Assembly (NCBI GenBank): GCA_963844035.1
Contig: CAWJMT010000035.1
Coordinates: forward strand, 9,537-73,536
Origin: an uncultured Gemmatimonadales bacterium
GTDB lineage: Bacteria; Gemmatimonadota; Gemmatimonadetes; Gemmatimonadales; GWC2-71-9
Length of the DNA: 64,000 bases
Direction: 5' to 3'
Part shown: positions 2,133 to 52,099 of the stretch, piece by piece
Position numbering within the stretch: the first letter of the stretch is position 1
How the letters are laid out: every line of letters starts with the position of its first letter
Translations under genes and position numbers: made by a program
Notes under the pieces: generated by a model
The model's database searches: none
What the model saw: the letters and a program-made list of their open reading frames with translations, nothing else
What the model was told of the DNA's origin: nothing

Positions 2133-2888
2133 CTAATGAGGTGGCGCGCGCCTCACCAGCGACTCAAGGGTCTCGAGCGCGGCGCCGGCCGCGGACAGGC
2201 GCTCCACTTCCGACGTGAGTTCCCGGCAACGTGCCTCGGCGCGCGCGCGACCAGATTGCGCCTCCTGCAGGCGCGTGTCCAGATCGGCCAGCTCTGCCTC
2301 CGCTTCTTGCAGCAGCGCCGCCCGGTCTTCGAGCCCGCGCAGTCCGGCGATCTCTTCGAGCACCTGGTCGCGTTCGGCGGCGAGCGCTTCTGCCTCGGCC
2401 ACCGCCTCATCGGCGATCCGCCGCCGCTCCTCGGCCTGGGCCTCGAACGAGCCCCTAGCCCGGCGTTCCTTCTTCAGCTCGGCCTCGCCCCGGGCGAGCG
2501 CGGCGCGGGCCTCGTCCAGCTCCCCGGCCAGCCGGGACCGTTCCTCGATCGCGGACTCGAGCTTGGCGCGCAACAAGTCGATCAACTCCCGCACGGCCGC
2601 CGCGGTCTGCTGAGGCTCGGCCTCGCCGGCGGACCCGCGCGCGGTCGCCGCCAGTCGCTCCCGCAGCGACGCGGTCCGCTCCCGACCGCTCTTCCCGCGC
2701 GCGACGCGCGGGCTCGGTTGCGGAGTTGCCGGCGGAGGCGTGACGTCGGGCGTCGGCGCGAGGACGACCGACTCGATACTGGTGGGCGGCGTCCCGTTTT
2801 CGGAGCCGGCCGTGAGCTCGGTGAGCACGCGGGAGATCGGCCGCGGCTTACGGGCTGGAACGTTGGCGTCGAAACCGCGTGTCGTCAC
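2133..2888 (-). CDS. Pro/Ala-rich N-terminus + C-terminal coiled-coil protein (PomX-like architecture)
   Basis: This is the frame of ORF 2133..3029. A GTG at 2888 overlaps the ParA stop as GTGA, indicating translational coupling. The N-terminus is ..PPTSIESVVLAPTPDVTPPPATPQPSP. The C-terminal ~150 aa are heptad-like and Glu/Ala/Arg/Leu-rich. Confidence 0.7.
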   Translation of the reverse strand: MTTRGFDANVPARKPRPISRVLTELTAGSENGTPPTSIESVVLAPTPDVTPPPATPQPSPRVARGKSGRERTASLRERLAATARGSAGEAEPQQTAAAVRELIDLLRAKLESAIEERSRLAGELDEARAALARGEAELKKERRARGSFEAQAEERRRIADEAVAEAEALAAERDQVLEEIAGLRGLEDRAALLQEAEAELADLDTRLQEAQSGRARAEARCRELTSEVERLSAAGAALETLESLVRRAPPH

Positions 2889-3850
2889 GCGCTCTTCTCC
2901 ATCGCGCGCTCGAGGCGCGCGCTGATCATCAGGCCGATGAGAGCGTCGATGTCCTTGGCGCCCTTGCACGATGGCGCGAAGGCATTGACGGGCAGGCCCT
3001 CGCTGGATGCCTGCGCGAACTGCGTGCATTGCCGCACGACCGCGTCCGACAGGAACTCGCGATAGTGCGTTTCCAGCGCCGCTTTTGCCTCGCGCGCGAT
3101 CCTGGTCGTGGGGTTGTATTGATTGATGACGATCAGGATCCGCTGCAGCCGGTGGTTCAGATCGTCCTCGAGTTGGCCCAGGGTCTCGAACAGCAATTTG
3201 AGACCGTGAAACGACAGGAAATCCGGGAGCACCGGGACGAGCAAGTCATCGGAGGCCATCAACGCATTGAGGTTCAGGAGCCCGAAGGAGGGCGGGGCAT
3301 CCATGACGATGAAATCGTAGCGATCAGACACTCGGGCGAGGGCCCGCTGGAGCTTGTACTCCCGCCCGGCCATCGGCATGAGACTGATGTCAATCGTCGT
3401 CATCCGCAGGTTGGCCGGGAGCACATCGAACTCCGCCAGCACTGTTCCCACGATCACGTCTTCGATCGGGACCCCGCCGACCATCACGTCGAAGACCGTG
3501 CGCTCGAAATTCTCGCCGGCGAGGCCCAGATGCCGGGTCGCGTGCCCCTGCGAATCGAGGTCGATCAAGAGCACCCGGTGGCCCATTTCTGCGAGCCGGT
3601 AGGCGTAGGCCACGGAAAGGCTGGTCTTGCCGGTGCCACCCTTGAAGTTCAGGAAGAGCTGGCGGCGCAGCGGCTCCCGGCCAGGGTAGCAACCCAACAC
3701 TCTGCGGTACGCCGACAGGTGTCGCGGCTGGTAGGAGTCGGGTCCGCCGCCCAGCCGTTTCAGCTCGGCCAGTTTGTCGGCGTCGGTGAGCAGCGTGTCG
3801 GTGAGCCCCAGGAGCTTGGCAAAGTGCCTGCGCTGGTAGTGGATCTCCAC
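2885..3850 (-). CDS. ParA/MinD-family P-loop ATPase with a ~65-aa N-terminal extension (PomZ-like position)
   Basis: Deviant Walker A FKGGTGKTS, then LLIDLDSQGHAT and a Walker B-like FIVMDAPPS. The GTG start overlaps the upstream gene's stop by 1 nt. Confidence 0.9.
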   Translation of the reverse strand: MEIHYQRRHFAKLLGLTDTLLTDADKLAELKRLGGGPDSYQPRHLSAYRRVLGCYPGREPLRRQLFLNFKGGTGKTSLSVAYAYRLAEMGHRVLLIDLDSQGHATRHLGLAGENFERTVFDVMVGGVPIEDVIVGTVLAEFDVLPANLRMTTIDISLMPMAGREYKLQRALARVSDRYDFIVMDAPPSFGLLNLNALMASDDLLVPVLPDFLSFHGLKLLFETLGQLEDDLNHRLQRILIVINQYNPTTRIAREAKAALETHYREFLSDAVVRQCTQFAQASSEGLPVNAFAPSCKGAKDIDALIGLMISARLERAMEKSA

Positions 3851-4977
3851 TAGGACGCTCGCTGCACGATGCCGGTCTCCGAGCGCCCGGGGTCTTGGGC
3901 GCGAAGGATCTGAAGGACGATGCGCCGCACCTGGGGGTCGGGATCACCGGTGAGCGGCTCGAGGAGCGGGCGCAGGGCCACCCCTCGCGCCGCGGCCGCG
4001 GCGAGCACCGCGCGGCGGCGAACGTGGGGGTTGGCGTCGGCGATCCCCCACCGGATGTGGGGCTCGAGCCGCACCGGGTCCCGTTGCAGCAGCCGGCCGA
4101 GCGCGTGGTACGCCGCGGCGCGCACGATCGGATCTTCTGCGGTGGCCCAAGGGCGAACGGCGTAGAACGCGTCGTCCCCGCCACGGCGGCCGAGACGGAG
4201 GAGCAGATCCACCTGGTCCTGTGGGCGCTCCGCCGCCGCCAGTGCCGCGACCAACCCGTCCGCAGGGGGACGCTCCGGCGTCACCGCGGCGGCAGCCGGC
4301 TCAGTGAGCTCCAGCATCTGTGGTGGGGTCGTCGCCTGGTCGAGCTGCTCGCGCAGGGCGGCCTCGCGGCGCTCTCCCAAGGCGTTGTCCCGTTCGAGGT
4401 CGAGGAGGGCGCGGCGCAGACTGCCGATGAACTCGGCAAGATCTACGGCTTCGGTGTCGCCGTGGCGCACGGAGCGTTGCCACTCGACCACCCGCGTGAG
4501 CAGGGTCTCGCGGGATGCCACCAGCTCGTCCACGCGCGCTCGCAGCTGCGAGGTCGTCTGTTCGCTGCCCGCGATACGCTCCCGGGCGGCAGCCGCTTCC
4601 CGCCGCAGGCGCACCAGCTCCTGCGCGTCGTCGCGCGCCTCTGACTCGAAGACATGTCCCTGCAGGTTGGCGCGCAGCGCCTCGGAGTGTTCCAGTCGCC
4701 GGTGTAGGGCGGCGACCTCCTCACGGGCCTGGGCGACCTCGCCCTGGAGCCGGCTGAGACGCTGAGTTTCGCCGACCTCACGCGCGGCGGCCTCGGCGAG
4801 GCGAACGCGGGCCAAGTCCGCCTCGGCGCGCGCCTCGTCGAGCGCGCCGCGCAATTGCTCCAGCCGGCACTCGAGCAGTACGGTCCGGTCCGAGCCGGCG
4901 GGCGGAGCCGAGCCCGCCGAGAGGCTGCCTCGACGCGGAGCCGTTACGCCTTCTCGCAGGGCAAGACCATGTATCAT
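3850..4977 (-). CDS. N-terminal coiled-coil + C-terminal HEAT-repeat protein (PomY-like architecture)
   Basis: ORF 3850..4977. Residues ~35-215 are coiled-coil-like. The C-terminus has repeated DP.VR..A units (DPIVRAAAYHALGRL, ANPHVRRRAVLAAA, DPDPQVRRIVLQIL) typical of HEAT/PBS-lyase repeats. Confidence 0.8.
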   Translation of the reverse strand: MIHGLALREGVTAPRRGSLSAGSAPPAGSDRTVLLECRLEQLRGALDEARAEADLARVRLAEAAAREVGETQRLSRLQGEVAQAREEVAALHRRLEHSEALRANLQGHVFESEARDDAQELVRLRREAAAARERIAGSEQTTSQLRARVDELVASRETLLTRVVEWQRSVRHGDTEAVDLAEFIGSLRRALLDLERDNALGERREAALREQLDQATTPPQMLELTEPAAAAVTPERPPADGLVAALAAAERPQDQVDLLLRLGRRGGDDAFYAVRPWATAEDPIVRAAAYHALGRLLQRDPVRLEPHIRWGIADANPHVRRRAVLAAAAARGVALRPLLEPLTGDPDPQVRRIVLQILRAQDPGRSETGIVQRAS

Positions 4978-5162
4978 CAGTATAGCAAAACGCGTCAGTC
5001 CGCGAAACCCATGAGGTCAAGTCAAGTCCCCTGAACCGGGCCCACCGGCCAGGTTTGGATTACTTGGTGCGGTGATCGCGCCAGCCGTCATATTCGGGGT
5101 GGCGACCCTTTGGCCCGTGGTTCTCGGCGGGCACGCTCGTTGACTCCTCCGGCGGTGGGGGA

Positions 5163-5304
5163 GCCTAACAAGCGCGTGAAGCTGTCGGCGCGGTCGCTTC
5201 GAGGTAGAATTGCAGTTGTGCGCCAGCGTATCATCTGTGAGCGGCTTGATCACCGGGGCGCCCGGCTGGACGGGGCGCCGCAGCTTACGCGCATTCCGTT
5301 AGGC
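5163..5304 (+). repeat. attC-like site, 141-bp family, complete
   Basis: GCCTAACAAGCGCGTGAAGCTG...CAGCTTACGCGCATTCCGTTAGGC. The R''/R' cores are exact complements. The left arm GCGCGT-G-AAGCTG carries one unpaired G relative to the right arm. Confidence 0.85.
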
Positions 5305-5472
5305 AGCACACTCCAATCCTTGATGTTTACTTGACGGTGTCATGCAATGCTTCCGGGCACCTCGTTCGGAGCATTGCCCATGACTGCGAAGCGCGCTGTT
5401 CTCCCGCTTGGTTTAACTCGGCGGGCGGGTTGTCCGCGGCTCATGCGCGATCCGTTAGGCAGCGGCCATACC

Positions 5473-5835
5473 ATGCGATCTCTAACCTTACTCGTGGCCA
5501 GTCTCGCCCTGCTTGCCCCGGTCTCTGCGTGCGGCGCCGGCTGGCAGCGACTACCGGCCGTCACACCCGGGGCTTTCGAGCCCCGTCAGCAGGTGCAGAT
5601 TTGGCATGCCGGGACCGTCTCCCGCTGGCATGCTGTGGTGATCGGCCCCGACTCAATTTCCGGAATTCCTTACTATAAGGTGGTGGACTGCGATAGCTGC
5701 CGCACTCGCGTACCTCGCAGCGTCGTGGACTCCATTCGCGTCGGGGATCCCGTCGCAGGGTTCTGGAAATCTGTCGGACTCACTCTTGGGCTCATGTTCG
5801 CCTTCTGTTACGCGACGTGCCCCAGGGGGGATTGA
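5473..5835 (+). CDS. Cassette ORF: small lipoprotein, hypothetical
   Basis: In-frame ATG at 5473 within ORF 5347..5835. N-terminus MRSLTLLVASLALLAPVSAC has a lipobox. The stop is 8 nt before the next attC. Confidence 0.6.
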   Translation: MRSLTLLVASLALLAPVSACGAGWQRLPAVTPGAFEPRQQVQIWHAGTVSRWHAVVIGPDSISGIPYYKVVDCDSCRTRVPRSVVDSIRVGDPVAGFWKSVGLTLGLMFAFCYATCPRGD

Positions 5836-5842
5836 GGGCGCT

Positions 5843-5983
5843 GCCTAACAAGCGCGTGAAGCTAGCGGCGCGGCCTCTTCGAGGTAGAATTGCGTTTGTG
5901 CGCCAGTCTTTGTCTGTGTGGGACTTGATCACTCGGGCGCCCGGCGGGGCGCGGCGCCGCAGCTTACGCGCATTCCGCTAGAC
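5843..5983 (+). repeat. attC-like site, 141-bp family, with a mutated R' core
   Basis: Full-length copy, but the right core reads GCTAGAC (5977-5983) instead of GTTAGGC, so the G/TT crossover triplet is altered. Confidence 0.8.
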
Positions 5984-6003
5984 GGCGGCAAAGGGCGAGA
6001 CCT

Positions 6004-6735
6004 GTGTCGAACGAGTTCGCGAACGTCTATCAGGATCAAGCTCGGGCCGACGCCTATGCGCAGCTCGAGTTTCCGGGTACCTACTTCCTAGCCTTTCGGG
6101 ATCTGCCGACGCTGTTCCACGAGCACGTCCGTGGCCGGCTGGCACTCGACTTTGGCTGCGGGACGGGGCGTTCGACGCGCTTCCTCCGGGGTCTCGGCTT
6201 CAGCCCTATCGGCGTGGACATTGCCGATTCAATGCTCGCTCGGGCGCGCGAGCTTGATCCGCGGGGTGAATACCGGCTGGTTGGGGATGGAGACTTGAGC
6301 GGACTGCCCGAGGCGACGTATGACCTCATTCTGTCAGCGTTCACGTTCGACAACATCCCGACGCTGGATCGGAAGGCAGCGTTGCTCGGAGCACTGCGGC
6401 TTCGCCTTAAGCCCTCGGGACGTCTGGTCAACCTCGTTTCAACACCCGACATCTACGTCCATGAGTGGGCCTCATTCTCCACGCGCGATTTCCCAGAGAA
6501 CCGCTTGGCTAAGAGCGGGGGTCGCGTTCGCATAGTGATGTTGGATGTGGGTGATCGTCGGCCCGTCGAGGACATCGTTTGTTCAGACGAGGACTACGTG
6601 CGTCTGTATGCCGCCGCCGGGCTGGAGGTGGTCGCTAGGCACGACCCGCTGGGACAACCCACCGATGGCATCGCCTGGGTCAGTGAGACAACGGTAGCGC
6701 CGTGGGCAATCTACGTCCTCGCGCGCGGTGCGTAA
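6004..6735 (+). CDS. Cassette ORF: class I SAM-dependent methyltransferase
   Basis: GTG start 21 nt after the attC. Motif I LDFGCGTGRSTRFL. Overall Methyltransf_11/25-like layout. Confidence 0.85.
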   Translation: MSNEFANVYQDQARADAYAQLEFPGTYFLAFRDLPTLFHEHVRGRLALDFGCGTGRSTRFLRGLGFSPIGVDIADSMLARARELDPRGEYRLVGDGDLSGLPEATYDLILSAFTFDNIPTLDRKAALLGALRLRLKPSGRLVNLVSTPDIYVHEWASFSTRDFPENRLAKSGGRVRIVMLDVGDRRPVEDIVCSDEDYVRLYAAAGLEVVARHDPLGQPTDGIAWVSETTVAPWAIYVLARGA

Positions 6736-6750: not shown

Positions 6751-6891
6751 GTCTAACAAGCGCGTGAAGCTGGCGGCGCGTGCTCTTCGAGGTAGAATTG
6801 CGTTTGTGCCCCCGTCTCCATCTGTGGAGCGGTTGATCATCGGGGCGCCCGGCGGGGCGGGGCGCCGCAGCTTACGCGCAATCCGTTAGGT
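6751..6891 (+). repeat. attC-like site, 141-bp family, complete
   Basis: GTCTAACAAGCGCGTGAAGCTGGCGGCGCG...GCGCCGCAGCTTACGCGCAATCCGTTAGGT. Both cores fit RYYYAAC / GTTRRRY. Confidence 0.85.
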
Positions 6892-6911: not shown

Positions 6912-7703
6912 TTGCAGGTAGCAAAGAAGCTCGTCCTCGTCACTGGCGCCTCATCTGGCATTGGAGCAGCCGTAGCTCACGGCATGGCCCGCCGTGGAGC
7001 GCGGCTCATTCTCGTGGCACGGGACCCTGCACGACTGTCGGCGGTTGCCAGAGAGCTCGCGTCCCTTCCGACCGAGGCCCACGTTTACGCTGCCGACCTC
7101 GCCGACCCGAAGGCTGTTGAAGCATTGGCCCACGACGTGAGCGCCCGGCACGGGACCCCCGATGTGTTGGTGAACAACGCGGGCGCTGGCCGCTGGCTCA
7201 CGATCGAGGAAACATCTGCAGAGGAGCTCGAGCAGATGATGGCGGTGCCGTACTTTGCAGCATTCAACCTCACGCGTGCCTTCCTGCCGGGCATGCGGCG
7301 CCGGGGAACTGGCCACATCGTCAACGTCACCTCTGTGGCCAGTCGACTCGTGTGGCCAGGGGCTGCCGCGTATACGGCCGCGCGTCGTGCCGTCGTGGCG
7401 TTCTCTGAATCACTGCGCACTGAACTTGCGGGGACTGCCTTGAGGGTCACCGTCACCACCTTTGGCACCGTGTCAACACCCTACTGGGCCCACAATCCTG
7501 GAAGCGAGGACCGCCTCCCCCTCGCCGATCGATCAATACCACGGCTGACGGCCGAGGCGGCCGCAGAGGCTCTTTGCCGCGGCGTGGAGCGCGAGAGAGC
7601 CGAAGTCATCTTGCCTCGGCGCTTTCGGCTGCTGTTCCTTCTCAATGCCGTGGCTCCTAAGAGCACGGCCCAGATACTTCGGCGGGGGTGGAAAGGCGCC
7701 TAA
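6912..7703 (+). CDS. Cassette ORF: short-chain dehydrogenase/reductase (SDR)
   Basis: TTG start 21 nt after the attC. Cofactor motif VTGASSGIGAAVA, NNAG, and YTAAR.A resembling the catalytic YxxxK region. The stop TAA lies inside the next GCCTAAC core. Confidence 0.9.
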   Translation: MQVAKKLVLVTGASSGIGAAVAHGMARRGARLILVARDPARLSAVARELASLPTEAHVYAADLADPKAVEALAHDVSARHGTPDVLVNNAGAGRWLTIEETSAEELEQMMAVPYFAAFNLTRAFLPGMRRRGTGHIVNVTSVASRLVWPGAAAYTAARRAVVAFSESLRTELAGTALRVTVTTFGTVSTPYWAHNPGSEDRLPLADRSIPRLTAEAAAEALCRGVERERAEVILPRRFRLLFLLNAVAPKSTAQILRRGWKGA

Positions 7704-7718
7704 CAAGCGCGTGAAGCC
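7698..7718 (+). repeat. Truncated attC (left arm only)
   Basis: GCCTAACAAGCGCGTGAAGC matches the family consensus, after which similarity is lost. No R' core follows before the next ORF. Confidence 0.6.
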
Positions 7719-9336: not shown

Positions 9337-9348
9337 AGAGGCGCGCGC

Positions 9349-9450
9349 GCGTATCAAGCGCGTGAAGCTGCCGGCGCGGTCTCCGCGGGGTGGAATTGCG
9401 TTCTGTGCGTCCGTACTGCATCTGGTGGAGCGGTTGTGGTGAAATCGGGA
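9349..9450 (+). repeat. Truncated, degenerate attC (left ~two-thirds)
   Basis: GCGTATCAAGCGCGTGAAGCTGCCGGCGCGG..GGAATTGCGTTCTGTGCG..GAGCGGTTG follows the family consensus with a degenerate R'' (GCGTATC). The right arm and R' are absent. Confidence 0.6.
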
Positions 9451-9543
9451 GACAGCGCTGGTCTTGAGGGGGCAGTGGCGCCGAGCCGTCCCGGTTCGAG
9501 TTCGGGCCAGGGCATGTCTCGGAAGGTTATCCCCAGGTGGCGC

Positions 9544-9810: not shown

Positions 9811-9999
9811 CGATGACCATCGGACGCGCACGGCGGAGGCAGATGTCCCGTCGCACACCTCGAAGGCTGCCCCGTTTTCACACGCCGCTCGTGAATCGGA
9901 GCGTGCGAAAGACCTCGACGGTGCCTCGGCATCGCGAGGTCGACGAGTTTCTGGCCCGCAAGATCTGTCGCGATCTTGAAGTTCCTGAAGCGCTCCGAC

Positions 10000-10126
10000 G
10001 CCTAACAAGCGCGTGAAGCTGGCGGCGCGGCCCTCACGAGGTAGAATTGCGTTTGTGCGCCCGTCTGCATCTGTGGATCGGTTGATCATCGGCGTGCCCG
10101 GCGGGGCGGGGCGCCGCAGCTTACGC
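10000..10126 (+). repeat. attC-like site, 141-bp family, lacking the R' end
   Basis: Matches the consensus from GCCTAACAAGCGCGTGAAGCTG through ..GCGCCGCAGCTTACGC. The expected GCATTCCGTTAGGC is then replaced by unrelated sequence. Confidence 0.75.
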
Positions 10127-10143
10127 CGCCTCTCGCGCGCCGC

Positions 10144-12757: not shown

Positions 12758-12777
12758 CAACCCATCACGGAGCAATC

Positions 12778-13581
12778 ATGCGCTGGATCCCCGGTAGCCG
12801 AAGCGAAAACCTCGAGGACCGCCGCGGCCAACGATTCGGCGGTTTCGGCCGACTTGGTCTGGGAGGCGCGGTCATCGTCGTGGTTCTCAGCCTCGTGTTT
12901 GGGCGTGACTTCACCGGAATCTTGACTGACGGCGGGGAAGTCGGCTCCCAGTCCGCTCCGGACGGGTCCGCGGCACCAGTCCAGTCCACGCCCCAGGAAG
13001 AACGGCTCGTCGACTTCGTCTCGTTCGTGCTGGACAGCGCGCAGGCCACCTGGGCCCGGATCCTGCCGCAGCAAGGCGCCCGCTATCGCCCCGCGAAACT
13101 CGTGCTGTTCCGCGATGCGGTGCAGTCCGCCTGCGGGTTCGGCCAGGCCGCCAGTGGGCCGTTCTACTGTCCTGGCGACGAAAAGGTGTACATCGACCTC
13201 GGCTTCTTCGAGGAGCTCAAAACCCGCTTCGGCGCCCCTGGCGATTTTGCCCAGGCCTACGTTCTCGCCCATGAGCTCGGCCACCACGTCCAGAACCTGC
13301 GCGGCACCATGGGCGCGGCGCGCGACAACCAACAGTCCGTCCAGATCGAGCTGCAGGCCGACTGCCTTGCGGGCGTCTGGGGCTACCACGCGTCCCGGCA
13401 GAACCTGCTCGAGCCCGGTGACGTGGAAGAGGGCATGGGTGCCGCAGCGGCGGTCGGCGATGATCGAGTGACCGGCGGCCGCGTGAGCCCCGAGAACTTC
13501 ACCCACGGCTCGTCCGCCCAACGCATCGCCGCGTTCCGGCGCGGGCTCACGTCCGGCCGCGTAGCTGACTGCGGCCCCTAG
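12778..13581 (+). CDS. YpfJ-like neutral zinc metallopeptidase, copy 1
   Basis: ATG at 12778 within ORF 12595..13581. MRWIPGSRSENLEDRRG, one TM segment, and an HELGHH zinc motif (AYVLAHELGHHVQN). Confidence 0.9.
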   Translation: MRWIPGSRSENLEDRRGQRFGGFGRLGLGGAVIVVVLSLVFGRDFTGILTDGGEVGSQSAPDGSAAPVQSTPQEERLVDFVSFVLDSAQATWARILPQQGARYRPAKLVLFRDAVQSACGFGQAASGPFYCPGDEKVYIDLGFFEELKTRFGAPGDFAQAYVLAHELGHHVQNLRGTMGAARDNQQSVQIELQADCLAGVWGYHASRQNLLEPGDVEEGMGAAAAVGDDRVTGGRVSPENFTHGSSAQRIAAFRRGLTSGRVADCGP

Positions 13582-13602
13582 AGGTGAAGGATTCATGATC
13601 TC

Positions 13603-15117
13603 ATGGTGACCCGGTGGCGTGCTCTGCTCCTCGGCGCCGTGGTGGCGCTCACGGCGTGCGGTCGCGACAAGCCGGCAGCGCAACAGGCGCCAATCGAGGA
13701 GGCCGAGGCTCCACTCCCGCCCTCCGACATCGAAACCCAGCTCCCGGCTTCGGTGCGCGAGGCGGTGCTGAGACCGTTTACCGGCGACGTCGACGAGCTC
13801 GTCAAGCTGCGGGTCGTGCGGGTCGGCGTGGCGTTCAATCGCACGTTCTATTACGTCGACAAGGGCGTGCCACGCGGCATCGCGTATGAGTACGGCCAGC
13901 TCATGGAGGCACGGCTCAACCAGCACTTCCACACCGGCAACAGCAACAAGATCCACGTGGTCTTCCTGCCGCTGCCGCGCGAAATGCTGCTGTCGGCGCT
14001 CATCGAGGGCAAGGTGGACCTGGTCGCGGCGCAACTCCCCGTGACGCCCGAGCTGCAGCAGCACGTCGCCTTCAGCGATCCCACCCGGACGAACGTCCAC
14101 CAGATCGTGGTCACCGGCCCCGGGGAGGGCGCGCCGGCGATCCGCACCATCGAGGACCTGTCGGGCAAAGAAGTGTTCGCCCGCGAATTCGGCGGCTATT
14201 CCCAGAGCCTGCAGGCGCTCAACGAGCTATTCAAATCCCACGGCAGGCCGCCGGTGGTGATCCGGCAGGCCCCGGCGAACCTGGAGGACGACGACCTGCT
14301 CGAGATGGTGAACGCCGGCCTGATCCCGGCCGTCGTGGTCGACGACTATCTCGCCGCTTTCTGGAAGAAAGTGTTTCGGAAACTCGTCGTCCACGACAGC
14401 ATCACGCTGCACTCCGGCGGGACGCTCGCGATCGCCGTGCGCAAGAACAACCCGCACCTGCTCGCGGCGCTGAACACGTTCATGGGGAAGTACGGGTTGG
14501 GCACGCCCTTTGGGGATCGGGTCAACCGGGACTACCTCGTCAACGCGAGCTACGCGAAGAGCGCCACGTCTGTGAGGGAGCGCAAGGCGTTCCTGGCGGT
14601 CGTGGCGCTGTTTCGGAAGTACAGCGACCGGTACAACATGGATTTCCTGCTGATGGCCGCTCAAGGATACCAGGAGTCCCGGCTCCGTCAGCACGCCCGG
14701 AGCCCGGTCGGTGCCATCGGCATCATGCAAATCATGCCGGAGACCGGCCGGTTATTGAACGTCGGCGACATCACCCAACTCGAACCGAATATCCATGCCG
14801 GCGTCAAGTTTATGAGCGACCTCCGGAACCGGAACTTCGCGAACGAGCCGATGGACGACCTGAACAAAGGGCTCTTCAGCTTCGCGGCGTACAACGCGGG
14901 ACCGACCCGGGTGCGCCGGTTGCGGGAGGAAGCCGAGCAGCGCGGCCTGAACCCCAACGTCTGGTTTGGAAACGTGGAGCAGATCGCGTCCGAGCGCATT
15001 GGGCGCGAGACCGTCACCTACGTCGCCAACATTTTCAAATACTACGTTGCATACCGGCTGGTGATGGAGGAGACGGAGCGCCGGGACGCAGCCAAGGCGG
15101 CGGTGAAAGCGCAGTAG
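13603..15117 (+). CDS. MltF-like lytic transglycosylase (SBP_bac_3 + SLT domains), lipoprotein
   Basis: N-terminus LLLGAVVALTAC has a lipobox. The N-terminal half resembles a periplasmic solute-binding protein. The C-terminal SLT signature is GYQESRLRQHARSPVGAIGIMQIMPETG..AAYNAGP. Confidence 0.85.
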   Translation: MVTRWRALLLGAVVALTACGRDKPAAQQAPIEEAEAPLPPSDIETQLPASVREAVLRPFTGDVDELVKLRVVRVGVAFNRTFYYVDKGVPRGIAYEYGQLMEARLNQHFHTGNSNKIHVVFLPLPREMLLSALIEGKVDLVAAQLPVTPELQQHVAFSDPTRTNVHQIVVTGPGEGAPAIRTIEDLSGKEVFAREFGGYSQSLQALNELFKSHGRPPVVIRQAPANLEDDDLLEMVNAGLIPAVVVDDYLAAFWKKVFRKLVVHDSITLHSGGTLAIAVRKNNPHLLAALNTFMGKYGLGTPFGDRVNRDYLVNASYAKSATSVRERKAFLAVVALFRKYSDRYNMDFLLMAAQGYQESRLRQHARSPVGAIGIMQIMPETGRLLNVGDITQLEPNIHAGVKFMSDLRNRNFANEPMDDLNKGLFSFAAYNAGPTRVRRLREEAEQRGLNPNVWFGNVEQIASERIGRETVTYVANIFKYYVAYRLVMEETERRDAAKAAVKAQ

Positions 15118-15230
15118 GATCGTGACGTCCATGGACGCAATCACGCTCGATGATAGTGATGGAGCCGAGGCGCTGCCCATCTGTCGCTCCAGCCCCACAC
15201 CGCTGCGCTCCCTCTCGCGCCCGCCGCTGA

Positions 15231-17673: not shown

Positions 17674-17682
17674 TAGCCCGCG

Positions 17683-17762
17683 GCCTGACGAGCGCGTGAA
17701 CCTAGCGGCGCGCTCGTGGCGCGGTAGAATTGCGGGTGTGCGATCGCTTACATCCGTGAGAT
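17683..17762 (+). repeat. Internally deleted, degenerate attC (~80 bp)
   Basis: GCCTGACGAGCGCGTGAACCTAGCGGCGCG..GGTAGAATTGCGGGTGTGCGA is joined to CGCTTACATCCGTGAGAT. Both cores are mutated (GCCTGAC, GTGAGAT). Confidence 0.6.
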
Positions 17763-19719: not shown

Positions 19720-19863
19720 ACAACTCCGATGAGACACCTTTCCCAAAAGGAGCGCGCGGGCATGTGATCCTGAGCGCAGATCCTTCGCTGCGCGCGCGTT
19801 CCGCGCGCTCCGCTCAGGATGACCGCCGCTTCTATGAAAAGAGAAGAGACATAGAGAGGAGAT

Positions 19864-19897
19864 GAAGCTGGCGGCGCGGTTGCCGCGAAGTAGAATT
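19864..19897 (+). repeat. Internal attC fragment
   Basis: GAAGCTGGCGGCGCGGTTGCCGCGAAGTAGAATT matches the family segment GAAGCTGGCGGCGCGG..CGAGGTAGAATT. No cores are present. It sits immediately upstream of ATG 19905. Confidence 0.55.
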
Positions 19898-24906: not shown

Positions 24907-25019
24907 GATCGGCTCCTTGATCGGTTTGGGCGCGCCTGATTGCGCGCTCTACCAGCACGACGAACGAAGGGCAGGGAAATCGACTGGCGGAGCGGTACTC
25001 GTGCGATAACATTGCAGTT

Positions 25020-25490
25020 GTGCCTCCGCATTCGCGCCCTCCGGAGCCGTACGTGCTTCCCCAGCCGGTGGTGGTGGACGGCCTGGCGGTGCGCACCAGC
25101 AACCCCGACGAAGCCCAGCCTGACCGCGCCAGGATCCCGGTATTGTGGGAGCGCTTCTACAATGAGGGCCACTCCGCCGCGGTGGAAGGTGCGGTATACG
25201 GCGTGTACTCCGAGTATGCGACCGATGCGTCGGGGCCTTACACACTGGTCGTCGGTGGTGCGAGCGACGCCGGGTCTCCGGTGCCACCCCTCACACGTGT
25301 GACGATCCCCGCCGGGCGGTATCTGGCCTTCACGAGCGCGGGCGAAGTCCCGGCGGCTGTGGTCGCCGGCTGGCAGGCCGTGTGGGAGTATTTCTCGCGT
25401 CCTGGGGCGCCGCGGCGGGCGTTCACAACGGACTTTGAGCTCTACGACCCGGCCACCCTGTATGAGGTGCGTATCTGCATCGCAGTGTAG
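25020..25490 (+). CDS. GyrI-like small-molecule-binding domain protein
   Basis: ..IPVLWERFY..GVYSEY..PYTLVVG..IPAGRYLAFT..W..FELYD is the pattern of the AraC-effector-binding/GyrI-like fold. Confidence 0.6.
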   Translation: MPPHSRPPEPYVLPQPVVVDGLAVRTSNPDEAQPDRARIPVLWERFYNEGHSAAVEGAVYGVYSEYATDASGPYTLVVGGASDAGSPVPPLTRVTIPAGRYLAFTSAGEVPAAVVAGWQAVWEYFSRPGAPRRAFTTDFELYDPATLYEVRICIAV

Positions 25491-33819: not shown

Positions 33820-35100
33820 ATGTTCGGACCGAAAACGCATTGCGTCGTTGTCGTCGGGGCCCAATGGGGTGACGAGGGCAAGGGCAAGATCGTCGACGTG
33901 CTCGCCGAGCGCGCCGACATGGTCGTACGCTACCAGGGCGGGGCCAATGCCGGGCACACCGTGGACACGGGCACCGGCGAGTTCATCCTCCATCAGATTC
34001 CTTCCGGCATCATCCAGGGCGCGATCTGCCTGGTGGGGAACGGGGTGGTCCTCGATCCCGAGACCTTTTTCACCGAGCTTGACGCACTGGAAGCCCAGGG
34101 CGTGCGGACCGATCAGAAACTGTACGTGTCGGACCGCGCCCACCTCACCCTGCCGCTCCATAAGCTGCTCGATCACGCGCGCGAGCGCCGCGAGCAGATC
34201 GGCACCACCGGTCGCGGGATTGGGCCGACGTATGAAGACAAGTTCGGCCGCCGCGGGATCCGGGTAGGAGACCTGCGCCATCTCCCCCGGGCTCGCGAGC
34301 TGGTCTGCGCCCGCGTGGAGGCGGCCAATGCATTCCTCGGCCTGCTCGGCGCCGATGAGCGAGCCAATCCGGCGGAGCACGTGGATCTCCTCGAGCGGCT
34401 GGCGCCACGTCTGCTGCCCATCGCGGTCGATGCGGGGCGGGTGGTGTACGAGTCGCTGGAGCGCGGCGAATCGGTGTTGCTCGAGGGTGCGCAGGGCGCC
34501 TTGCTCGACGTGGATCACGGCACCTATCCGTACGTCACCTCGTCCAACACCACCGCGGGTGGCGCGGCGGTCGGGGCCGGAATCGGTCCGACGGCAATCG
34601 ATGCGGTCCTCGGCGTCGTCAAGGCGTACACCACGCGGGTCGGCAACGGGCCGCTCCCCACCGAGGCGGAGCCCAAGCTGGCCGAGCATATCCGCGATCT
34701 GGGTGGCGAGTTCGGCGCGACAACCGGACGGCCCCGCCGCTGCGGGTGGTTCGATGCCGTCGTGGTCCGCTACGCCGTGCGGGTGAATGGCTTGACCGGA
34801 CTCGCGGTGACCAAGCTCGACGTGCTCGACACGTTCACCGAGATCCCGGTGTGCGTCGGGTATCGCCTCGACGGAGAACCGTACGACAGCATGCCCGCCG
34901 AGGTCGATCGTCTGGCCCGGGTGGAGCCGGTGTACGAAGTCTTGCCTGGGTGGGGCCAGTCCCTCTGCGGCGTCCGGCGCCTGGCCGATCTGCCGCCCGC
35001 GGCGCGTGCGTATCTGGATCGTCTGCAGGACCTTGCTCGCGCCCCGATCCGTTACGTGAGCGTCGGGACGCGCCGCGACCAGATCATCGAAGTGCCATGA
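33820..35100 (+). CDS. purA: Adenylosuccinate synthase
   Basis: VVVGAQWGDEGKGKIVD, GTTGRGIGPTYEDK and GATTGRPRRCGW. Confidence 0.95.
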   Translation: MFGPKTHCVVVVGAQWGDEGKGKIVDVLAERADMVVRYQGGANAGHTVDTGTGEFILHQIPSGIIQGAICLVGNGVVLDPETFFTELDALEAQGVRTDQKLYVSDRAHLTLPLHKLLDHARERREQIGTTGRGIGPTYEDKFGRRGIRVGDLRHLPRARELVCARVEAANAFLGLLGADERANPAEHVDLLERLAPRLLPIAVDAGRVVYESLERGESVLLEGAQGALLDVDHGTYPYVTSSNTTAGGAAVGAGIGPTAIDAVLGVVKAYTTRVGNGPLPTEAEPKLAEHIRDLGGEFGATTGRPRRCGWFDAVVVRYAVRVNGLTGLAVTKLDVLDTFTEIPVCVGYRLDGEPYDSMPAEVDRLARVEPVYEVLPGWGQSLCGVRRLADLPPAARAYLDRLQDLARAPIRYVSVGTRRDQIIEVP

Positions 35101-35113
35101 ACCTGCGCGCGCT

Positions 35114-36118
35114 ATGCTCGACCTGGCGGTGATTGGGGCCGGGCCCTGTGGACTCGCCGCGGGCGCCGCCGCGAAGCGGGCCGGCTTGCGCGCGGCGGTG
35201 TTCGACAAGGGCCCGGTGGTCGCGAGTCTGCTCACCTACCCGCTGTACATGACGTTCTTTTCGACCCCGGAGAAGCTCGAAATCGGCGGAGTGCCGTTCG
35301 TCACCAGCGGTGACAAGCCGACCCGCCGCGAAGCGCTCACCTACTACCGCAAGGTCGCGGAGTATCTGGATCTCGACGTGCGTCAGTATCACGAGATCGT
35401 AGGCGTGGTACCTGCGCGCGGGGGCGGGTTCGAGGTCAGCGTTCGTCCTCCGGGGTCGGCCAACCCTGAGACGGTGGCGGCGCGGCACGTGGTATTCGCC
35501 ACCGGCTATTTCGAGTCGCCGAACCTGCTCGGCGTTCCGGGGGAAGATCTCCCGCATGTGTCGCATTTCTTCACCGAGGCGCACCCCTACTGGCGGCAGC
35601 GGGTCGTCGTGGTTGGCGGTGGAAATAGCGCGGTCGAAGCTGCGCTCGAGCTGCACCGGGTCGGCGCACTGGTGACCATCGTCCACTTCCTGGGAGACGT
35701 GGACAAGGGCGTGAAGCCCTGGGTGCTCCCCGATATCTCGAACCGCCTGAAAGACGGCAGCATCGCGGGCCGCTGGCGCAGCCGTGTCCAGAAGATCGAA
35801 CCGGGTCGCGTGGTCATCGCCCGCGACACTGACGGTGCGACCGAGACGCTGCCCGCGGACTTCGTGCTGGCGCTGACGGGGTACCGCGCCGACCAGCGCT
35901 TGCTCAGGATGCTGGGCGTCAGAATCGACTCCACGACTGGCGTGCCCGCCCACGATCCGCTGACAATGGAAACGAACGTGCCCGGCGCCTATATCGCCGG
36001 TGTGCTGTCGTGCGGGTTCGATGCGAACAGGGTGTTCATCGAGAACGGGCGGGGGCACGGCGACCTGATCTGTACCCATATAAAAGCACGACCCCCCAGA
36101 GTTGCCCCCGGGGGGTGA
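35114..36118 (+). CDS. YpdA-family FAD/NAD(P)-binding oxidoreductase (putative bacillithiol disulfide reductase)
   Basis: VIGAGPCGLAAG.. followed by PLYMTFFSTPEKLEIGGVPF, which I associate with the YpdA family. Second dinucleotide fold VVVVGGGNSAVEAA. Confidence 0.7.
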   Translation: MLDLAVIGAGPCGLAAGAAAKRAGLRAAVFDKGPVVASLLTYPLYMTFFSTPEKLEIGGVPFVTSGDKPTRREALTYYRKVAEYLDLDVRQYHEIVGVVPARGGGFEVSVRPPGSANPETVAARHVVFATGYFESPNLLGVPGEDLPHVSHFFTEAHPYWRQRVVVVGGGNSAVEAALELHRVGALVTIVHFLGDVDKGVKPWVLPDISNRLKDGSIAGRWRSRVQKIEPGRVVIARDTDGATETLPADFVLALTGYRADQRLLRMLGVRIDSTTGVPAHDPLTMETNVPGAYIAGVLSCGFDANRVFIENGRGHGDLICTHIKARPPRVAPGG

Positions 36119-36407
36119 TCGCCTGCCCAACATCGTGCGCCCTAGACCCCGATGCGAGCGAGACGAAGTTCGTGCTCTTCAAGCGCTCGTATCAGGGCAT
36201 GCTTCAGACTCCGGTAGCCGGGCTATCTCTTCCGAGACCCCTAGCTTTGCGCCCCACCGTTGCCGGTGGTTTGCCCTGATCAGAGTTCTTCCGGGGTGGG
36301 GTAAAGCAAAATCGGTGCCCGGGATAGAAGGGTGTTTTTCCGCACGGAAACTCTGTCCCAGTCGTCACCGTATCGTGCTAAATGCCCGAAACAATGCATA
36401 ATGCGAC

Positions 36408-37484
36408 ATGTCGTACGTAGTCTTGGCTGCGCCGGCAGCGTTCAAGGGGTCATTCGGCCCAAAGCAGGTCGCTGACGCCTTCGCCTCGGGCGTTCGCCGC
36501 GCGCTTCCCGACGCCACCGTCTTGCAGTGTCCCATATCCGATGGCGGCGACGGGCTGCTCGAGGCCGTCCTTCCGAGGGAATCGCTGCGGGAGTCGGTCG
36601 CCGTCACCGGACCACTAGGGTCCAAGGTGCAGGCGGTGCTTGGTTGGCTCGACAGTGACACCGCCATTTTCGAGTCTGCCAGTGCCTGCGGGATTGCGCT
36701 GCTCAAACCCGACCAACTCGATCCGCTGCACGCGACCACGCGTGGCGTTGGAGAGCTGATCTGGGAGGCGGTCGACCGCGGGGCGCGCACGGTCGTGGTT
36801 GGCCTTGGCGGCTCGGCGACGGTCGACGGCGGCAGTGGGGCCGCGCGGGGTCTCGGGTGGACTCTGCGGGATCGCGCCGGTGGGTTGCTTCCGGAGGGAG
36901 GTGGCTCGCTCGTCGATATCGCCGGCTTGGACGGGGGGTGGCGACTCGAAGCGCAGATCGTGGCGCTCGCCGACGTGACCACGCCGTTGGTCGGTGCCGC
37001 CGGAGCGGCGCGGGTCTTCGGACCGCAAAAGGGGGCCTCGCCGGAAGCCGTCGATCGCCTCGCGGCAGGGCTCGAGGTGCTCGCCGCGGAATGGGCGCGG
37101 CAGGGCCGCCCCGATCTCGGAACGCTGCCGGGCGGTGGTGCCGCCGGCGGCCTGGGCGCCGGGCTCGCGTTCTTCGGGCGGGCGGAGCTGATCCGCGGCG
37201 CCGAGTGGGTGCTCGAGCGGGTGGGATTCGACGCCGCGTTGGCGTCGGCAGACTTGCTGATCACGGGCGAGGGCGCGTTCGATCGCACGTCGCTTGTCGG
37301 GAAGGCATCGGGCGAAGTGCTGCGGCGCGCGCAGGCGGCGCGGAAGAAAGTGGCGGTGGTGGCCGGGACCGTCAGCGATCTGATCGGCGTGCACGCGCTC
37401 GGAGGCGAGGGCCGGACGCTCGACGCGGCCGGGATCGCCGACCTCGCCGAGCGCGCGACCCGTGAGGCTTTTGGGTTATCTTAG
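36408..37484 (+). CDS. Glycerate kinase
   Basis: APAAFKGSF..A.A...G......V...P.SDGGDG N-terminus and C-terminal ..LITGEG.FD.TSL.GK. Confidence 0.9.
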   Translation: MSYVVLAAPAAFKGSFGPKQVADAFASGVRRALPDATVLQCPISDGGDGLLEAVLPRESLRESVAVTGPLGSKVQAVLGWLDSDTAIFESASACGIALLKPDQLDPLHATTRGVGELIWEAVDRGARTVVVGLGGSATVDGGSGAARGLGWTLRDRAGGLLPEGGGSLVDIAGLDGGWRLEAQIVALADVTTPLVGAAGAARVFGPQKGASPEAVDRLAAGLEVLAAEWARQGRPDLGTLPGGGAAGGLGAGLAFFGRAELIRGAEWVLERVGFDAALASADLLITGEGAFDRTSLVGKASGEVLRRAQAARKKVAVVAGTVSDLIGVHALGGEGRTLDAAGIADLAERATREAFGLS

Positions 37485-48153: not shown

Positions 48154-48905
48154 ATGCTTGTCCTGCAGGCGGCGCTCGACGCGGGGCGCAATGTCTCGTT
48201 CGTCGTGGCGTTTACGGCTGGACTGCTGAGCTTTCTGTCGCCCTGCGTCCTGCCGCTCATCCCGAGCTACGTCGGCTTTCTCACCGGCATGTCCGTCGAA
48301 GAGCTGCAGACGAAGCGCGGCACCGCGCTGCTCCACGCCCTGTGGTTCGTGGCCGGGTTCTCCATCGTCTTCATGGCGCTCGGCGCGACCGCGTCGGTGT
48401 TGGGCGGGTTCATGCTCCGCTACCACGTGTGGATCGGGCGCATCGGCGGCGTGCTGGTGCTGCTCGTTCGGGTTGTATCTGCTGGGCGTGTTGCGTCCGG
48501 CGTTCCTGATGCAGGAGCGGCGCATCCAGCTGGCGCGGAAACCCCTGGGATATGCCGGCTCAGCGCTCGTGGGCGTGGCGTTCGGCGCCGCCTGGACGCC
48601 CTGCATCGGCCCGATTCTCGGCGCGATCCTGACGCTGGCGGCGGAGGCGGCCAGCGTGGCGCAGGGGACGGCCCTGCTCGGCGTCTACGCCCTCGGGCTC
48701 GCCGTCCCGTTCGTGCTGACCGCAGTGGCGCTGGATCGGTTTCTGGTGTGGTTCCAGAGGTTCCGTCCGTACATCGTGTGGGTGGAACGAATCGCCGGCG
48801 TGATGTTAGATACTTCTGGGTGTGCTCCTGATCACCGACCGCTTCAGCTTGCTCGCGGGATACTTGCAAGGACTGACCCCCGAATTTCTGAAGCGGCGGT
48901 TGTAG
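48154..48905 (+). CDS. ccdA: Cytochrome c biogenesis protein CcdA, two frameshifts (~48468 and ~48810)
   Basis: LLSFLSPCVLPLIPSYVGFL is in ORF 48154..48831. The middle part (LYLLGVLRPAF..GAAWTPCIGPILGAIL) is in ORF 48473..48940. The tail LLGVLLITDRFSLLAGYLQGL..KRRL is in a third frame ending at 48905. Confidence 0.85.
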
Positions 48906-48971: not shown

Positions 48972-49742
48972 ATGACCGGTAATCAGTGGATACGACTGAG
49001 CGCCGCGTTGAGCCTGGCGGCGGTGCTCGGCTGTGCCAAGGGCGAGCAGAGTCAGACTCGCCGACAGCACGGCCCGCAACCTGACGCTCGCGCCGACCGA
49101 ATCGACCGCGGCGATGAAGGACGTTCCGGCGCCCGAAGAGCAGCCCGCCGCCCCCGCGCCCAAGCCGGCGCCCAAACCCAAGCCGAAGCCCCGCCACCCG
49201 CCCCCACGAGCTACACGCTCCGGGCCGGTACCGGGGTTGCCATGAGCATCGACGACTCCATCACGACGCGCCACGCCAAGGCGGGTGACACCTTCAAAGC
49301 GACCGTCAGCGAGGACATCCGGGATGCCTCGGGGCACGTAGTGATTCCGATGGGCTCGGTGGTGACGGGAACGGTCGTCAGCGCGGTGCCCGCGCCCAAT
49401 CCGCGCGCGACCGGTCACCTCGACCTGGCGGTGAGCACCGTGGCAGTGCGCGGCGTGGTCTATACCGTCGAAGGCACGGTGGATTCCAAGGACAGCGTGA
49501 TGCAAGGACGTGGTGTCACGACGGCGGACGCCGGCAAAGTGGCCGCGGGCGCGGCGGTCGGCGCCATCGCGGGCAAGCTGTTCGGTAAGAACACGAAGGG
49601 TGCGGTGATCGGTGGTGCCGCGGGTGCGGCGGCGGGTGGCGTGGTCGCCTCGCGGTCGCGCGACATCGATGTGCTGCTTCCCGCGGGCGCGGGTATTCAC
49701 GTGACGCTGTCGGCGCCGCTGACGGTGAGCGCGCGTCGCTGA
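48972..49742 (+). CDS. Lipoprotein with a C-terminal glycine-zipper region
   Basis: ..LSLAAVLGC lipobox and AAGAAVGAIAGKLFG..GAVIGGAAGAAAGG. Residues ~25-75 look more natural in the frame of ORF 49033..49245 (..APEEQPAAPAPKPAPKPKPKP), suggesting two compensating indels. Confidence 0.6.
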   Translation: MTGNQWIRLSAALSLAAVLGCAKGEQSQTRRQHGPQPDARADRIDRGDEGRSGARRAARRPRAQAGAQTQAEAPPPAPTSYTLRAGTGVAMSIDDSITTRHAKAGDTFKATVSEDIRDASGHVVIPMGSVVTGTVVSAVPAPNPRATGHLDLAVSTVAVRGVVYTVEGTVDSKDSVMQGRGVTTADAGKVAAGAAVGAIAGKLFGKNTKGAVIGGAAGAAAGGVVASRSRDIDVLLPAGAGIHVTLSAPLTVSARR

Positions 49743-49764
49743 GCTAGAGCGTGACCGGGTCGCC

Positions 49765-50091
49765 ATGTTTGGGGCCCGGTCACACCGCAGGCATCTACAA
49801 CCTTCGAGCCATCCCAGCACGCCCGGGCCGATCCCTGTGTTCCACGAGTTGCTGCGATACCTGCTCATTGCTGCCGCGCTGGCCAGTGTGATCTACGGTG
49901 TTGTCAATTTTCCGGGTTCTCACCTGCGCTCTGCGACCTATGTTACGCGTCCGAAGGTGTGGTGGTGGTCACCGTGGCGCTTCTTCAGCGATGACGAATG
50001 GACAGCGGAGGGACTCACCTACCGGCGCCGATTCGTGATGTGGTGCCTGCTGTCGGTTGGGCTCCTCATGGCCGTCATGTGGCTCCTGTAG
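49765..50091 (+). CDS. Small membrane protein, hypothetical
   Basis: Two hydrophobic segments (LLRYLLIAAALASVIYGVV, FVMWCLLSVGLLMAVMWLL). The start is uncertain. Confidence 0.4.
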   Translation: MFGARSHRRHLQPSSHPSTPGPIPVFHELLRYLLIAAALASVIYGVVNFPGSHLRSATYVTRPKVWWWSPWRFFSDDEWTAEGLTYRRRFVMWCLLSVGLLMAVMWLL

Positions 50092-50190
50092 AACCGATGC
50101 CTAAGGAGGTATCTACGGTCAACGAGCCTGCACAGCACCCAACTACTGCGCGCGACTACAGCGCGCTCATCATCCTCGCGGAGAACGAGC

Positions 50191-50937: not shown

Positions 50938-50954
50938 CATCCAAGGACACGCTC

Positions 50955-51019
50955 CGCGAACAAGCGCGTGAGCTGGCGGCGCGGCCGCCACGAGGTAGAA
51001 TTGCGTTTGTGCGCCCGTC
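50955..51019 (+). repeat. attC left half (141-bp family), outside the main array
   Basis: ..GCGAACAAGCGCGTGA-GCTGGCGGCGCGGCCGCCACGAGGTAGAATTGCGTTTGTGCGCCCGTC matches the family left half. The core is degenerate and the right half is absent. Confidence 0.65.
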
Positions 51020-51070
51020 GGCGCTACTCCGGTTACACTTGTTGCTCGAGACGTTTATCACGGAGCACAC

Positions 51071-51883: not shown

Positions 51884-52099
51884 AGTCCGCCGAAGCCCTT
51901 CGGCGCGACGATCGTCGCCCTCGGTGCGCCGGTGGGGGAAGACTCACGCTGGTAGAATGTGAACGATGCTGGCAAGAGAACACGCGCAGCCTTGCAACAC
52001 AGGCCCTCGCGCCCGCTAAATGGACTCGTCACCTCGCACAAGCTCGGCGCATCGTCGCAAACCGGGCCCTCGCGCTGACTAGGCGGACTCCTTACCGTG

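Follow-up and report, generated by a model that had tools for sequence, protein, structure and literature searches.

Two diverged ypfJ-type peptidase genes and their probable integron connections on a contig of an uncultured Gemmatimonadales bacterium

A pair of ypfJ genes in direct orientation

This report deals with two closely similar genes for a putative zinc metallopeptidase of the YpfJ family, which lie 38 kb apart on one contig of an uncultured Gemmatimonadales bacterium (NCBI GenBank assembly GCA_963844035.1, contig CAWJMT010000035.1), and with the integron-like DNA around them. What we analysed, and call the window below, is the whole stretch of 64,000 nucleotides from position 9,537 to position 73,536 of that contig, which belongs to a metagenome-assembled genome (MAG); coordinates are those of the window unless the handle of another locus precedes them. 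When the window is compared with itself by BLAST, one long repeat pair emerges, 12764-13583 and 51057-51885, in direct orientation on the plus strand, with 94.45% identity over 829 aligned columns, 37 mismatches and an E-value of 0. A global alignment with 200-nt flanks places the start of identity at ATCACGGAGC, 14 nt 5' of the ATG and inclusive of the GGAG ribosome-binding site, and its end at TAGAG, 2 nt past the stop codon; beyond these limits the similarity between the flanks of the two copies is at the random level on both sides. Each repeat unit is thus made of a ribosome-binding site and an open reading frame (ORF), 12778-13581 in copy 1, encoding 267 aa with the short form VTGGRV, and 51071-51883 in copy 2, encoding 270 aa with the long form VQGMSTGRV; the protein of copy 2 is identical to a database protein (P0001) encoded on an NCBI/ENA contig of 322,763 nt.

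The two ORFs differ by 37 substitutions, distributed as 5/3/29 over codon positions 1/2/3, and by one in-frame indel of 9 nt that separates VTGGRV from VQGMSTGRV. According to the Nei-Gojobori method, synonymous divergence (dS) is 0.143 and non-synonymous divergence (dN) is 0.018, and the resulting dN/dS of 0.12 shows that both copies are held intact by purifying selection. Both translations match PF04228 over its full length (E 5e-86 and 4e-87; 289 and 293 bits against a Pfam cut-off of 23.2) and the NCBIfam equivalog NF050010 for KPN_02809/YpfJ (302 and 309 bits against a cut-off of 250), both have an intact HELGHH zinc-binding motif (AHELGHHVQN, of the HExGHH type), and both keep an N-terminal hydrophobic segment. 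They are therefore intact members of the YpfJ/KPN_02809 family, itself annotated as putative, and would be membrane-anchored zinc peptidases of the HExxH class. An initial annotation, made from the letters alone, had already described a YpfJ-like pair about 95% identical from near the ATG to just past the stop, about 35 substitutions biased to third codon positions, a single 9-nt indel, and purifying selection on both copies, and all of these descriptions hold. So does its statement that core genes stand between the copies, since TrpS, PurA, a class II aminoacyl-tRNA synthetase and PriA are encoded there.

An attC array in the first 25 kb

In what kind of DNA is copy 1 found? Repeats of a 141-bp family, 85-91% alike by BLAST, are located at 1-124, where the window begins inside the repeat, and at 5163-5304, 5839-5981, 6751-6891 and 9996-10132. 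They match the inverted core sites R'' (RYYYAAC) and R' (GTTRRRY), full copies reading GCCTAAC...GTTAGGC as in the complete repeat at 5163-5304 on the plus strand, which was detected by BLAST, by structure scan and by nhmmer. The copy at 6751-6891 has GTCTAAC...GTTAGGT, that at 5839-5981 has an R' mutated to GCTAGAC, and that at 9996-10132 is without R'. On folding, the bottom strand of 5160-5306 gives an imperfect hairpin (-36.2 kcal/mol, z -3.06) whose ends are paired and which contains one internal loop and two bulges of a single base. Between the repeats lie small, mostly co-oriented accessory ORFs, whose types are TerB-like, methyltransferase, SDR, PLD, RibD_C, DMP19, YCII, DoxX, cyclase, DUF4256 and Cass2. 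Because of the inverted core sites, the bulged hairpin and the alternation with small co-oriented ORFs including Cass2, we take the 141-bp repeats to be a family of integron attC sites. A generic structure scan, meant to find attCs of other types, returned noise for the most part, its sole addition being a site of a second, 103-nt type at 736-838 on the plus strand (GCCTAAC...GTTATGC; nhmmer E 1.7e-6; -24.3 kcal/mol); both types are present in one array. GC content is about 62-66% in the array and about 70% in the core.

Partial copies of the repeat accompany the fuller ones. One of them, at 9348-9436 on the plus strand, consists of the left part only, and others were found by nhmmer and BLAST at 17680-17761, 19863-19897 and 24984-25033, with a weak one at 7695-7717; all of them match the left or central part of the attC, within positions 5-92 of the hidden Markov model (HMM) in nhmmer. 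Just after the relic at 24984-25033 comes the Cass2 gene, for an integron-associated effector-binding protein (25053-25490, plus strand; PF14526, E 6e-16), which marks the far end of the decayed array. Mutated or absent R' sites and partial copies show that the array is decaying. It is to be noted that all the partial attCs, including those at L165:32-130 and L084:2782-2843 on contigs of relatives described below, keep the left or central part (HMM positions 5-105): left-part relics number seven or eight, right-half-only relics zero, and 9996-10132 is without R' only. This bias could come from polar decay starting at the R' crossover end, from some function of the left half, or from a detection bias against the GC-rich right half.

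The left half carries an invariant GGTAGAAT. As a sigma-70 promoter the left half can be dismissed, for it offers TAGAAT as a -10-like hexamer only and a consensus scan finds no promoter. The GGTAGAAT octamer occurs eight times in the window, against 0.34 expected by chance; seven of the occurrences are all inside attC-family copies, and the eighth is at 51951-51958, 68 nt after the stop codon of copy 2, where no attC similarity is seen and local alignments to the consensus stay at shuffle level. Within the array, three genes at 2133-4854 are oppositely oriented on the minus strand, encoding a coiled-coil protein, a ParA/AAA_31 ATPase and a HEAT-repeat protein. PADLOC gave weak matches only for this block and no convincing defence assignment for the array genes.

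Copy 1 and a displaced mltF gene

Copy 1 is separated by 20 nt from the ORF upstream of it and by 21 nt from an MltF-like gene directly 3' of it (13603-15117, plus strand), which was identified by Pfam and by nucleotide comparison with relatives. This gene is 92.6% identical in nucleotides to the core mltF of five relatives, the homology being confined to 13623-15120, while its first seven or so codons and both of its neighbours are replaced. In the relatives, mltF stands between GFO_IDH_MocA and either carbonic anhydrase or another gene, and in none of the five is ypfJ found at the mltF locus. A core mltF thus appears to have been displaced, as an ORF-sized piece, into the array region. The stretch from 10 to 18 kb is without attCs and is bounded by the R'-less attC at 9996-10132 and the left-half relic at 17680-17761. 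Since the mltF homology is confined to 13623-15120 and the neighbours are replaced, this whole stretch looks like a mosaic of ORF-sized pieces.

Copy 2, a half attC and an island in core DNA

Next to copy 2 there is a truncated attC at 50957-51019 on the plus strand, which comprises the left arm and part of the central region and has no right arm or R' site. Its part 50959-51019 is 95% identical to 10004-10065 (BLAST, E 2e-20), and 50957-51019 matches positions 10-73 of the attC profile HMM (nhmmer, E 5e-16), so that the orphan left-half attC reported beside copy 2 is real. It starts 20 nt after the stop codon of an ORF resembling an outer membrane protein (OMP) beta-barrel (50191-50937, plus strand; PF13505 E 3e-4, below the Pfam cut-off) and ends 52 nt before the ATG of copy 2. 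Its folding is no better than that of shuffled sequence (z -0.5 and -0.95), and the same result disposes of the idea that it is a complete short attC delimited by AACAAG...CTTGTT. The element is therefore a relic, not a recombination site. Given its place 5' of copy 2, the OMP gene before it, and not ypfJ, would be its owner if the layout were that of cassettes. It had been described as far outside the main array: it is indeed about 26 kb past the last array relic, while the main array proves to be larger and more decayed than was described, with relics to about 25 kb.

The half attC and copy 2 are parts of an island of 2.3 kb (49750-52090, plus strand) that contains an 84-aa ORF, the OMP gene, the half attC and copy 2, has a GC content of 62.6-66.4% against about 70% in the core, and lies between a conserved gene for a Gly-zipper lipoprotein and GMC-like/GGT genes. 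The island was delimited by synteny with five core-synteny relatives (L166-L170), which were found via the adjacent PvlArgDC gene and are 70-76% identical in nucleotides. Their order on the left side is HDAC, MR_MLE, PriA, ArgZ-like, (Fur), PvlArgDC, DsbD and Gly-zipper, and on the right side, after a variable stretch, GMC oxidoreductase (minus strand), GGT (minus strand), SIS and AnmK. The variable slot accommodates an MFS transporter and sugar oxidoreductases in some of them and an RHS protein with an insertion sequence (IS) in another, L169, where an RHS/YD gene and a transposase fragment take the place that copy 2 has in the window.

What does this arrangement tell about the origin of the island? 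Three options had been listed for the half attC and copy 2: a second cassette insertion point, integration of a cassette at a secondary site, and a rearrangement that split an ancestral array. In the last of them, about 25 kb of core genes would have come between two parts of one array, a view that gains something from the orientation of the half attC and copy 2, which is that of the main array, from attC relics scattered to 25 kb, and from the mltF mosaic as a sign that the region is prone to rearrangement. Since the core order is conserved on both sides of copy 2, from PriA to Gly-zipper on the left and from GGT through SIS to AnmK on the right, and only the slot varies, the island seems to be embedded in core DNA and not core DNA in an array; moreover, the island has just a single truncated attC. 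A split array is thus highly improbable, and the synteny favours ectopic insertion, or replacement, of cassette-derived DNA at a second site.

ypfJ in relatives and its status as a cassette

The best homologues of YpfJ in GTDB come from MAGs of Gemmatimonadales, with at most 61% identity in amino acids, and tblastn of all window proteins against 80 GTDB ypfJ loci found no neighbours common to either copy. Across 165 fetched loci the neighbours of ypfJ are variable. Closer relatives were found on short metagenomic contigs only, L081, L082, L083, L084, L164 and L165. Identity between ORFs is 95.1% for copy 1 and copy 2, 96.3% for copy 1 and L164, 96.4% for copy 1 and L165, and 95.9% for copy 2 and L165.

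The most informative of these contigs is L165 (ENA ERZ27267692), on which an attC left part (32-130), ypfJ (282-1094), a 72-nt flank, a complete attC (1163-1308) and a methyltransferase gene follow one another. The methyltransferase gene is 90.6% identical to 5848-6546 of the window, where the corresponding cassette is 6004-6735 and the slot upstream of it is occupied by an ORF at 5347-5835 in place of the ypfJ of L165. As ypfJ is followed there by a complete attC and then by the methyltransferase, it can be regarded as a bona fide cassette directly upstream of the methyltransferase cassette. In L082, L084 and L164, attC-family sequence likewise lies just 3' of ypfJ, the fragment in L164 being seen by eye; nhmmer detected this attC family in L165, L084 and L082 only among 2.16 Mb of fetched loci.

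Copy 2 shares more with some of these contigs than copy 1 does. Its 37-nt 5' leader (51020-51056, plus strand) is not in copy 1 and is shared with L084, where it stands behind pspC, and with L081, and its 37-nt 3' flank (51884-51920, plus strand) is common to L084, L165 and L082. In alignments, L084 extends over 51020-51915 of the window and L081 over 51040-51890, and the unit around copy 2, 51020-51920, is therefore longer than the repeat that the two copies have in common. On the 5' side, L164 and L165 have a breakpoint 14 nt before the ypfJ ATG, matching that between copy 1 and copy 2. At L164:45-73 and L165:253-281, CGCCGCCT(A/G)ACA lies directly 5' of the ribosome-binding site of ypfJ; it looks like the first 10-13 nt or so (the R'' box) of an attC with nothing else behind. 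The pair pspC-ypfJ occurs in L083 and L084 only among the fetched loci, and directly upstream of it in L084 there is a gene for an IS110-family transposase (L084:583-1608). The ORF upstream of ypfJ in L081 was considered as possible kin of that upstream of copy 1, and the two are unrelated.

Age of the pair

Two copies in direct orientation on one contig, with such high identity, naturally suggest a recent duplication of ypfJ in this genome followed by ordinary divergence, and the copies are indeed neighbours in a protein neighbour-joining (NJ) tree from which the indel region was excluded and which has no support values. The nucleotide NJ tree of the ORFs is different: copy 1, L164 and L082 form a clade with 80% bootstrap, and copy 2 branches outside. 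There is no parsimony-informative site unique to copy 1 and copy 2, while three sites and the indel patch, which consists of the 9-nt indel and, in the 6 nt next to it, at least 4 substitutions, unite copy 1, L164 and L082. The short-loop form is also found in a clade of relatives that are 65-70% identical, and the indel patch is common to other lineages. With dS of 0.143 between the copies, one can compare 0.207 for the methyltransferase cassette and 0.149 for mltF between this genome and the L165/L177 sample. As the dS of the pair is near these values between species, the two copies are about as old as the split between related species.

The flanks of the copies are unrelated although dS is only 0.14; a recent segmental duplication was rejected for this reason, together with the grouping of copy 1 with L164 and L082 and the lack of shared derived sites, and gene conversion between the copies was rejected because they have no uniquely shared site. 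The view of the pair as a recent duplicate has thus to be given up, and we regard it as scarcely probable. The history of the gene is probably not a simple one, since the distribution of 5' leaders conflicts with the tree (L164 and L165 share a leader and are not sisters), which makes recombination among ypfJ alleles likely.

How the two copies may have arisen

Putting these data together, we favour, with a probability of roughly 0.6, the reading that the two genes are old paralogs or alleles in an integron gene pool and that copy 2 came to its place by ectopic insertion of cassette-derived DNA. The chromosome, of a Gemmatimonadales-like soil bacterium, would bear a sedentary, partly decayed integron array that begins upstream of position 1 and extends to about 25.5 kb, and ypfJ would be part of the gene pool that is shuffled by the integron region in this lineage. 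The short-loop and long-loop forms would have been placed by separate events, either illegitimate or site-specific. Copy 1, with its ribosome-binding site and ORF only, would have settled in the attC-poor mosaic of the distal array, between ORFs of unknown kind and the displaced mltF, and copy 2 would have come as a longer ancestral unit of 37-nt leader, ORF and 37-nt 3' flank within the 2.3-kb cassette-derived island. The island may have arrived by integrase-mediated insertion at a secondary site or by another ectopic transfer, and its attC would have decayed afterwards.

Several observations weigh against this reading. The window, which begins within an attC, shows neither an integron integrase nor an attI; tblastn with an IntI1 query gave a marginal hit of 73 aa only in the window, in an ORF without a Pfam integrase domain. 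Neither of the ypfJ copies in the window has an attC of its own downstream, and therefore neither is a cassette by definition; around copy 1 and downstream of copy 2 no attC relic was found, local alignments to the consensus being at shuffle level. The half attC is upstream of copy 2, and at 51019/51020, where it breaks off abruptly, no GTT/GWT crossover signature is seen. The ORF tree is based on few sites and conflicts with the 5' leaders as mentioned above. The core-synteny relatives are just 70-76% identical, too distant to bear closely on the time and manner of the insertion. Finally, three core genes near copy 2, DsbD (48190-48884), the Gly-zipper gene (49063-49730) and GGT (54142-55769), align to the relatives in two or three frames, which means either long-read assembly errors or real pseudogenes.

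Such frameshifted genes, on a contig from a MAG, also lead one to ask whether the contig is chimeric or mis-joined, with a strain variant of ypfJ set into a false context. The short and long forms do look like alleles, as L164 and L165, from other samples, share a 5' leader. An artefact of this kind would need two mis-joins, and it has to be reconciled with unique flanks that continue for kilobases on both sides of each copy, with differences between the copies that are codon-structured and in frame, and with the recurrence of both flank types of copy 2 in the independent assemblies L084, L081 and L165. We regard it as very improbable and keep to ectopic, cassette-derived insertion as the source of copy 2.

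A possible trace of the origin of the cassette

From where did the ypfJ cassette itself come? On L083 the order of genes is pirin (minus strand), pspC, ypfJ and then a convergent ORF that runs off the contig. The GC content of this ORF by codon position, 0.69/0.47/0.86, is of the coding type, and there is a weak match to cyclophilin (E 0.002, below the Pfam cut-off). The 72-nt flank of ypfJ on L165 aligns to the last 21 or so codons of the convergent ORF with a 1-nt deletion (score 41 against 10.4 +/- 1.7 for shuffles; 0/2000), and this remnant is fused directly to the R'' end of the complete attC. Of the remnant, 31 nt survive in copy 2 and 26 nt in L084 (shuffles 1/2000 and 0/2000), the piece in copy 2 corresponding to the last codons (ATIVAP) of the convergent ORF, with a 7-aa tblastn match at 51921-51901. 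The convergent ORF is found in no fetched locus besides L083. As the gene is intact in L083 and decayed to remnants elsewhere, the direction of change would be from an L083-like arrangement, which may be the older one; we offer this as a lead.

The same data can be read differently. Copy 2 might be the original chromosomal ypfJ of the lineage, around which attC-bearing DNA came in or caused rearrangements, and copy 1 alone would then be an extra, integron-associated gene. It is true that, of the two copies, only copy 2 has the leader found in L084 and L081, that pspC is just upstream of ypfJ in L084 as it is in L083, and that copy 2 retains the 3' remnant of an ORF intact in L083, whose context looks unrelated to integrons. 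Nevertheless, pspC and the convergent ORF are both absent from the window, the OMP gene and the half attC beside copy 2 are not the neighbours that ypfJ has in L083 and L084, all relatives with conserved flanks have unrelated genes in the slot, and the ORF tree puts copy 2 nearer to cassette-type L165, copy 1 and L164 than to L083, L084 and L081. We therefore consider an original locus at copy 2 unlikely.

The remnant fused to the attC in L165, together with mltF displaced as an ORF-sized piece, suggests that genes resident in the chromosome are taken up by the integron region. De novo formation of cassettes has been described as largely unknown (PMC5371416), and the ypfJ cassette might be a preserved trace of such formation from the chromosome of the host lineage itself. 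We put this forward as a tentative idea, one that we would not yet lean on.

Apart from these subjects, a c-di-GMP-I-GGC riboswitch is found elsewhere in the window, at 36209-36284 on the minus strand (62.7 bits, above the Rfam gathering score), between plus-strand genes for Pyr_redox_3 (35114-36118) and glycerate kinase (36408-37484). The sole minus-strand ORF downstream of it, 35084-36133, overlaps the Pyr_redox_3 gene and has no Pfam match.

Known systems and the meaning of the pair

How does this case compare with systems already described? The attC sites of sedentary chromosomal integrons are homogeneous within a host, about 80% alike (PMC5371416). As in such integrons, of which the superintegrons of Vibrio are examples, the window has a homogeneous species-specific attC family, here at 85-91% identity, small co-oriented ORFs, a cassette content that differs between relatives, and more than one copy of a gene. 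Unlike Vibrio superintegrons, it has no integrase in the window, many of its attCs are truncated or R'-less, its ypfJ copies are without their own attC, a core mltF is found in the array, and the host is Gemmatimonadales-like and not a proteobacterium.

Lone cassettes, or single attC sites lacking an integrase (SALINs), and small clusters of attC sites lacking an integrase (CALINs) are common (bioRxiv 10.1101/2022.09.11.507474). An integrase can insert cassettes at genomic GWT sites, with later loss of the attCs by slippage, and domestication by such attC loss has been proposed (Loot et al., bioRxiv 10.1101/2022.09.11.507474). In the window, a lone truncated attC-derived sequence adjoins coding sequences at about 26 kb from the last array relic and might be of the SALIN or CALIN type. 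The island resembles SALIN/CALIN and attG insertions in that DNA of cassette type, with a single attC, lies within core genes and far away from the array. It differs from a SALIN or attG insertion in that the attC is a left half only and lies upstream of ypfJ, that no GWT/GTT junction is recognisable, that the island has two or three ORFs, and that insertion by an integrase is what we infer. As for the protein family, both copies agree with YpfJ/KPN_02809 in being full-length above the cut-offs, in the HExGHH motif and in the N-terminal hydrophobic anchor, and depart from it in number and linkage: the family is usually represented by a single chromosomal gene, and here there are two copies; across the 165 fetched loci, this attC family accompanies ypfJ in three close relatives only.

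The case fits paralogous cassettes together with a SALIN/CALIN-like relic, and so what it adds is one more example, from a little-studied phylum, and not a new kind of system; the two copies would be a fairly ordinary by-product of integron activity. It documents a probable sedentary integron in an uncultured Gemmatimonadales-like lineage, shows how a peptidase gene of housekeeping type can be present in a cassette array and also, domesticated and without attC, among core genes, and fits current ideas on SALINs, CALINs and insertion of cassettes into genomes. If the 3' remnant is borne out, its importance would be greater. Should the ypfJ cassette really be a trace of its own formation, close relatives would present the gene in three states, chromosomal with an intact neighbour, as a cassette with a remnant fused to an attC, and domesticated without an attC, and these three states would make the genesis of a cassette testable in one lineage.

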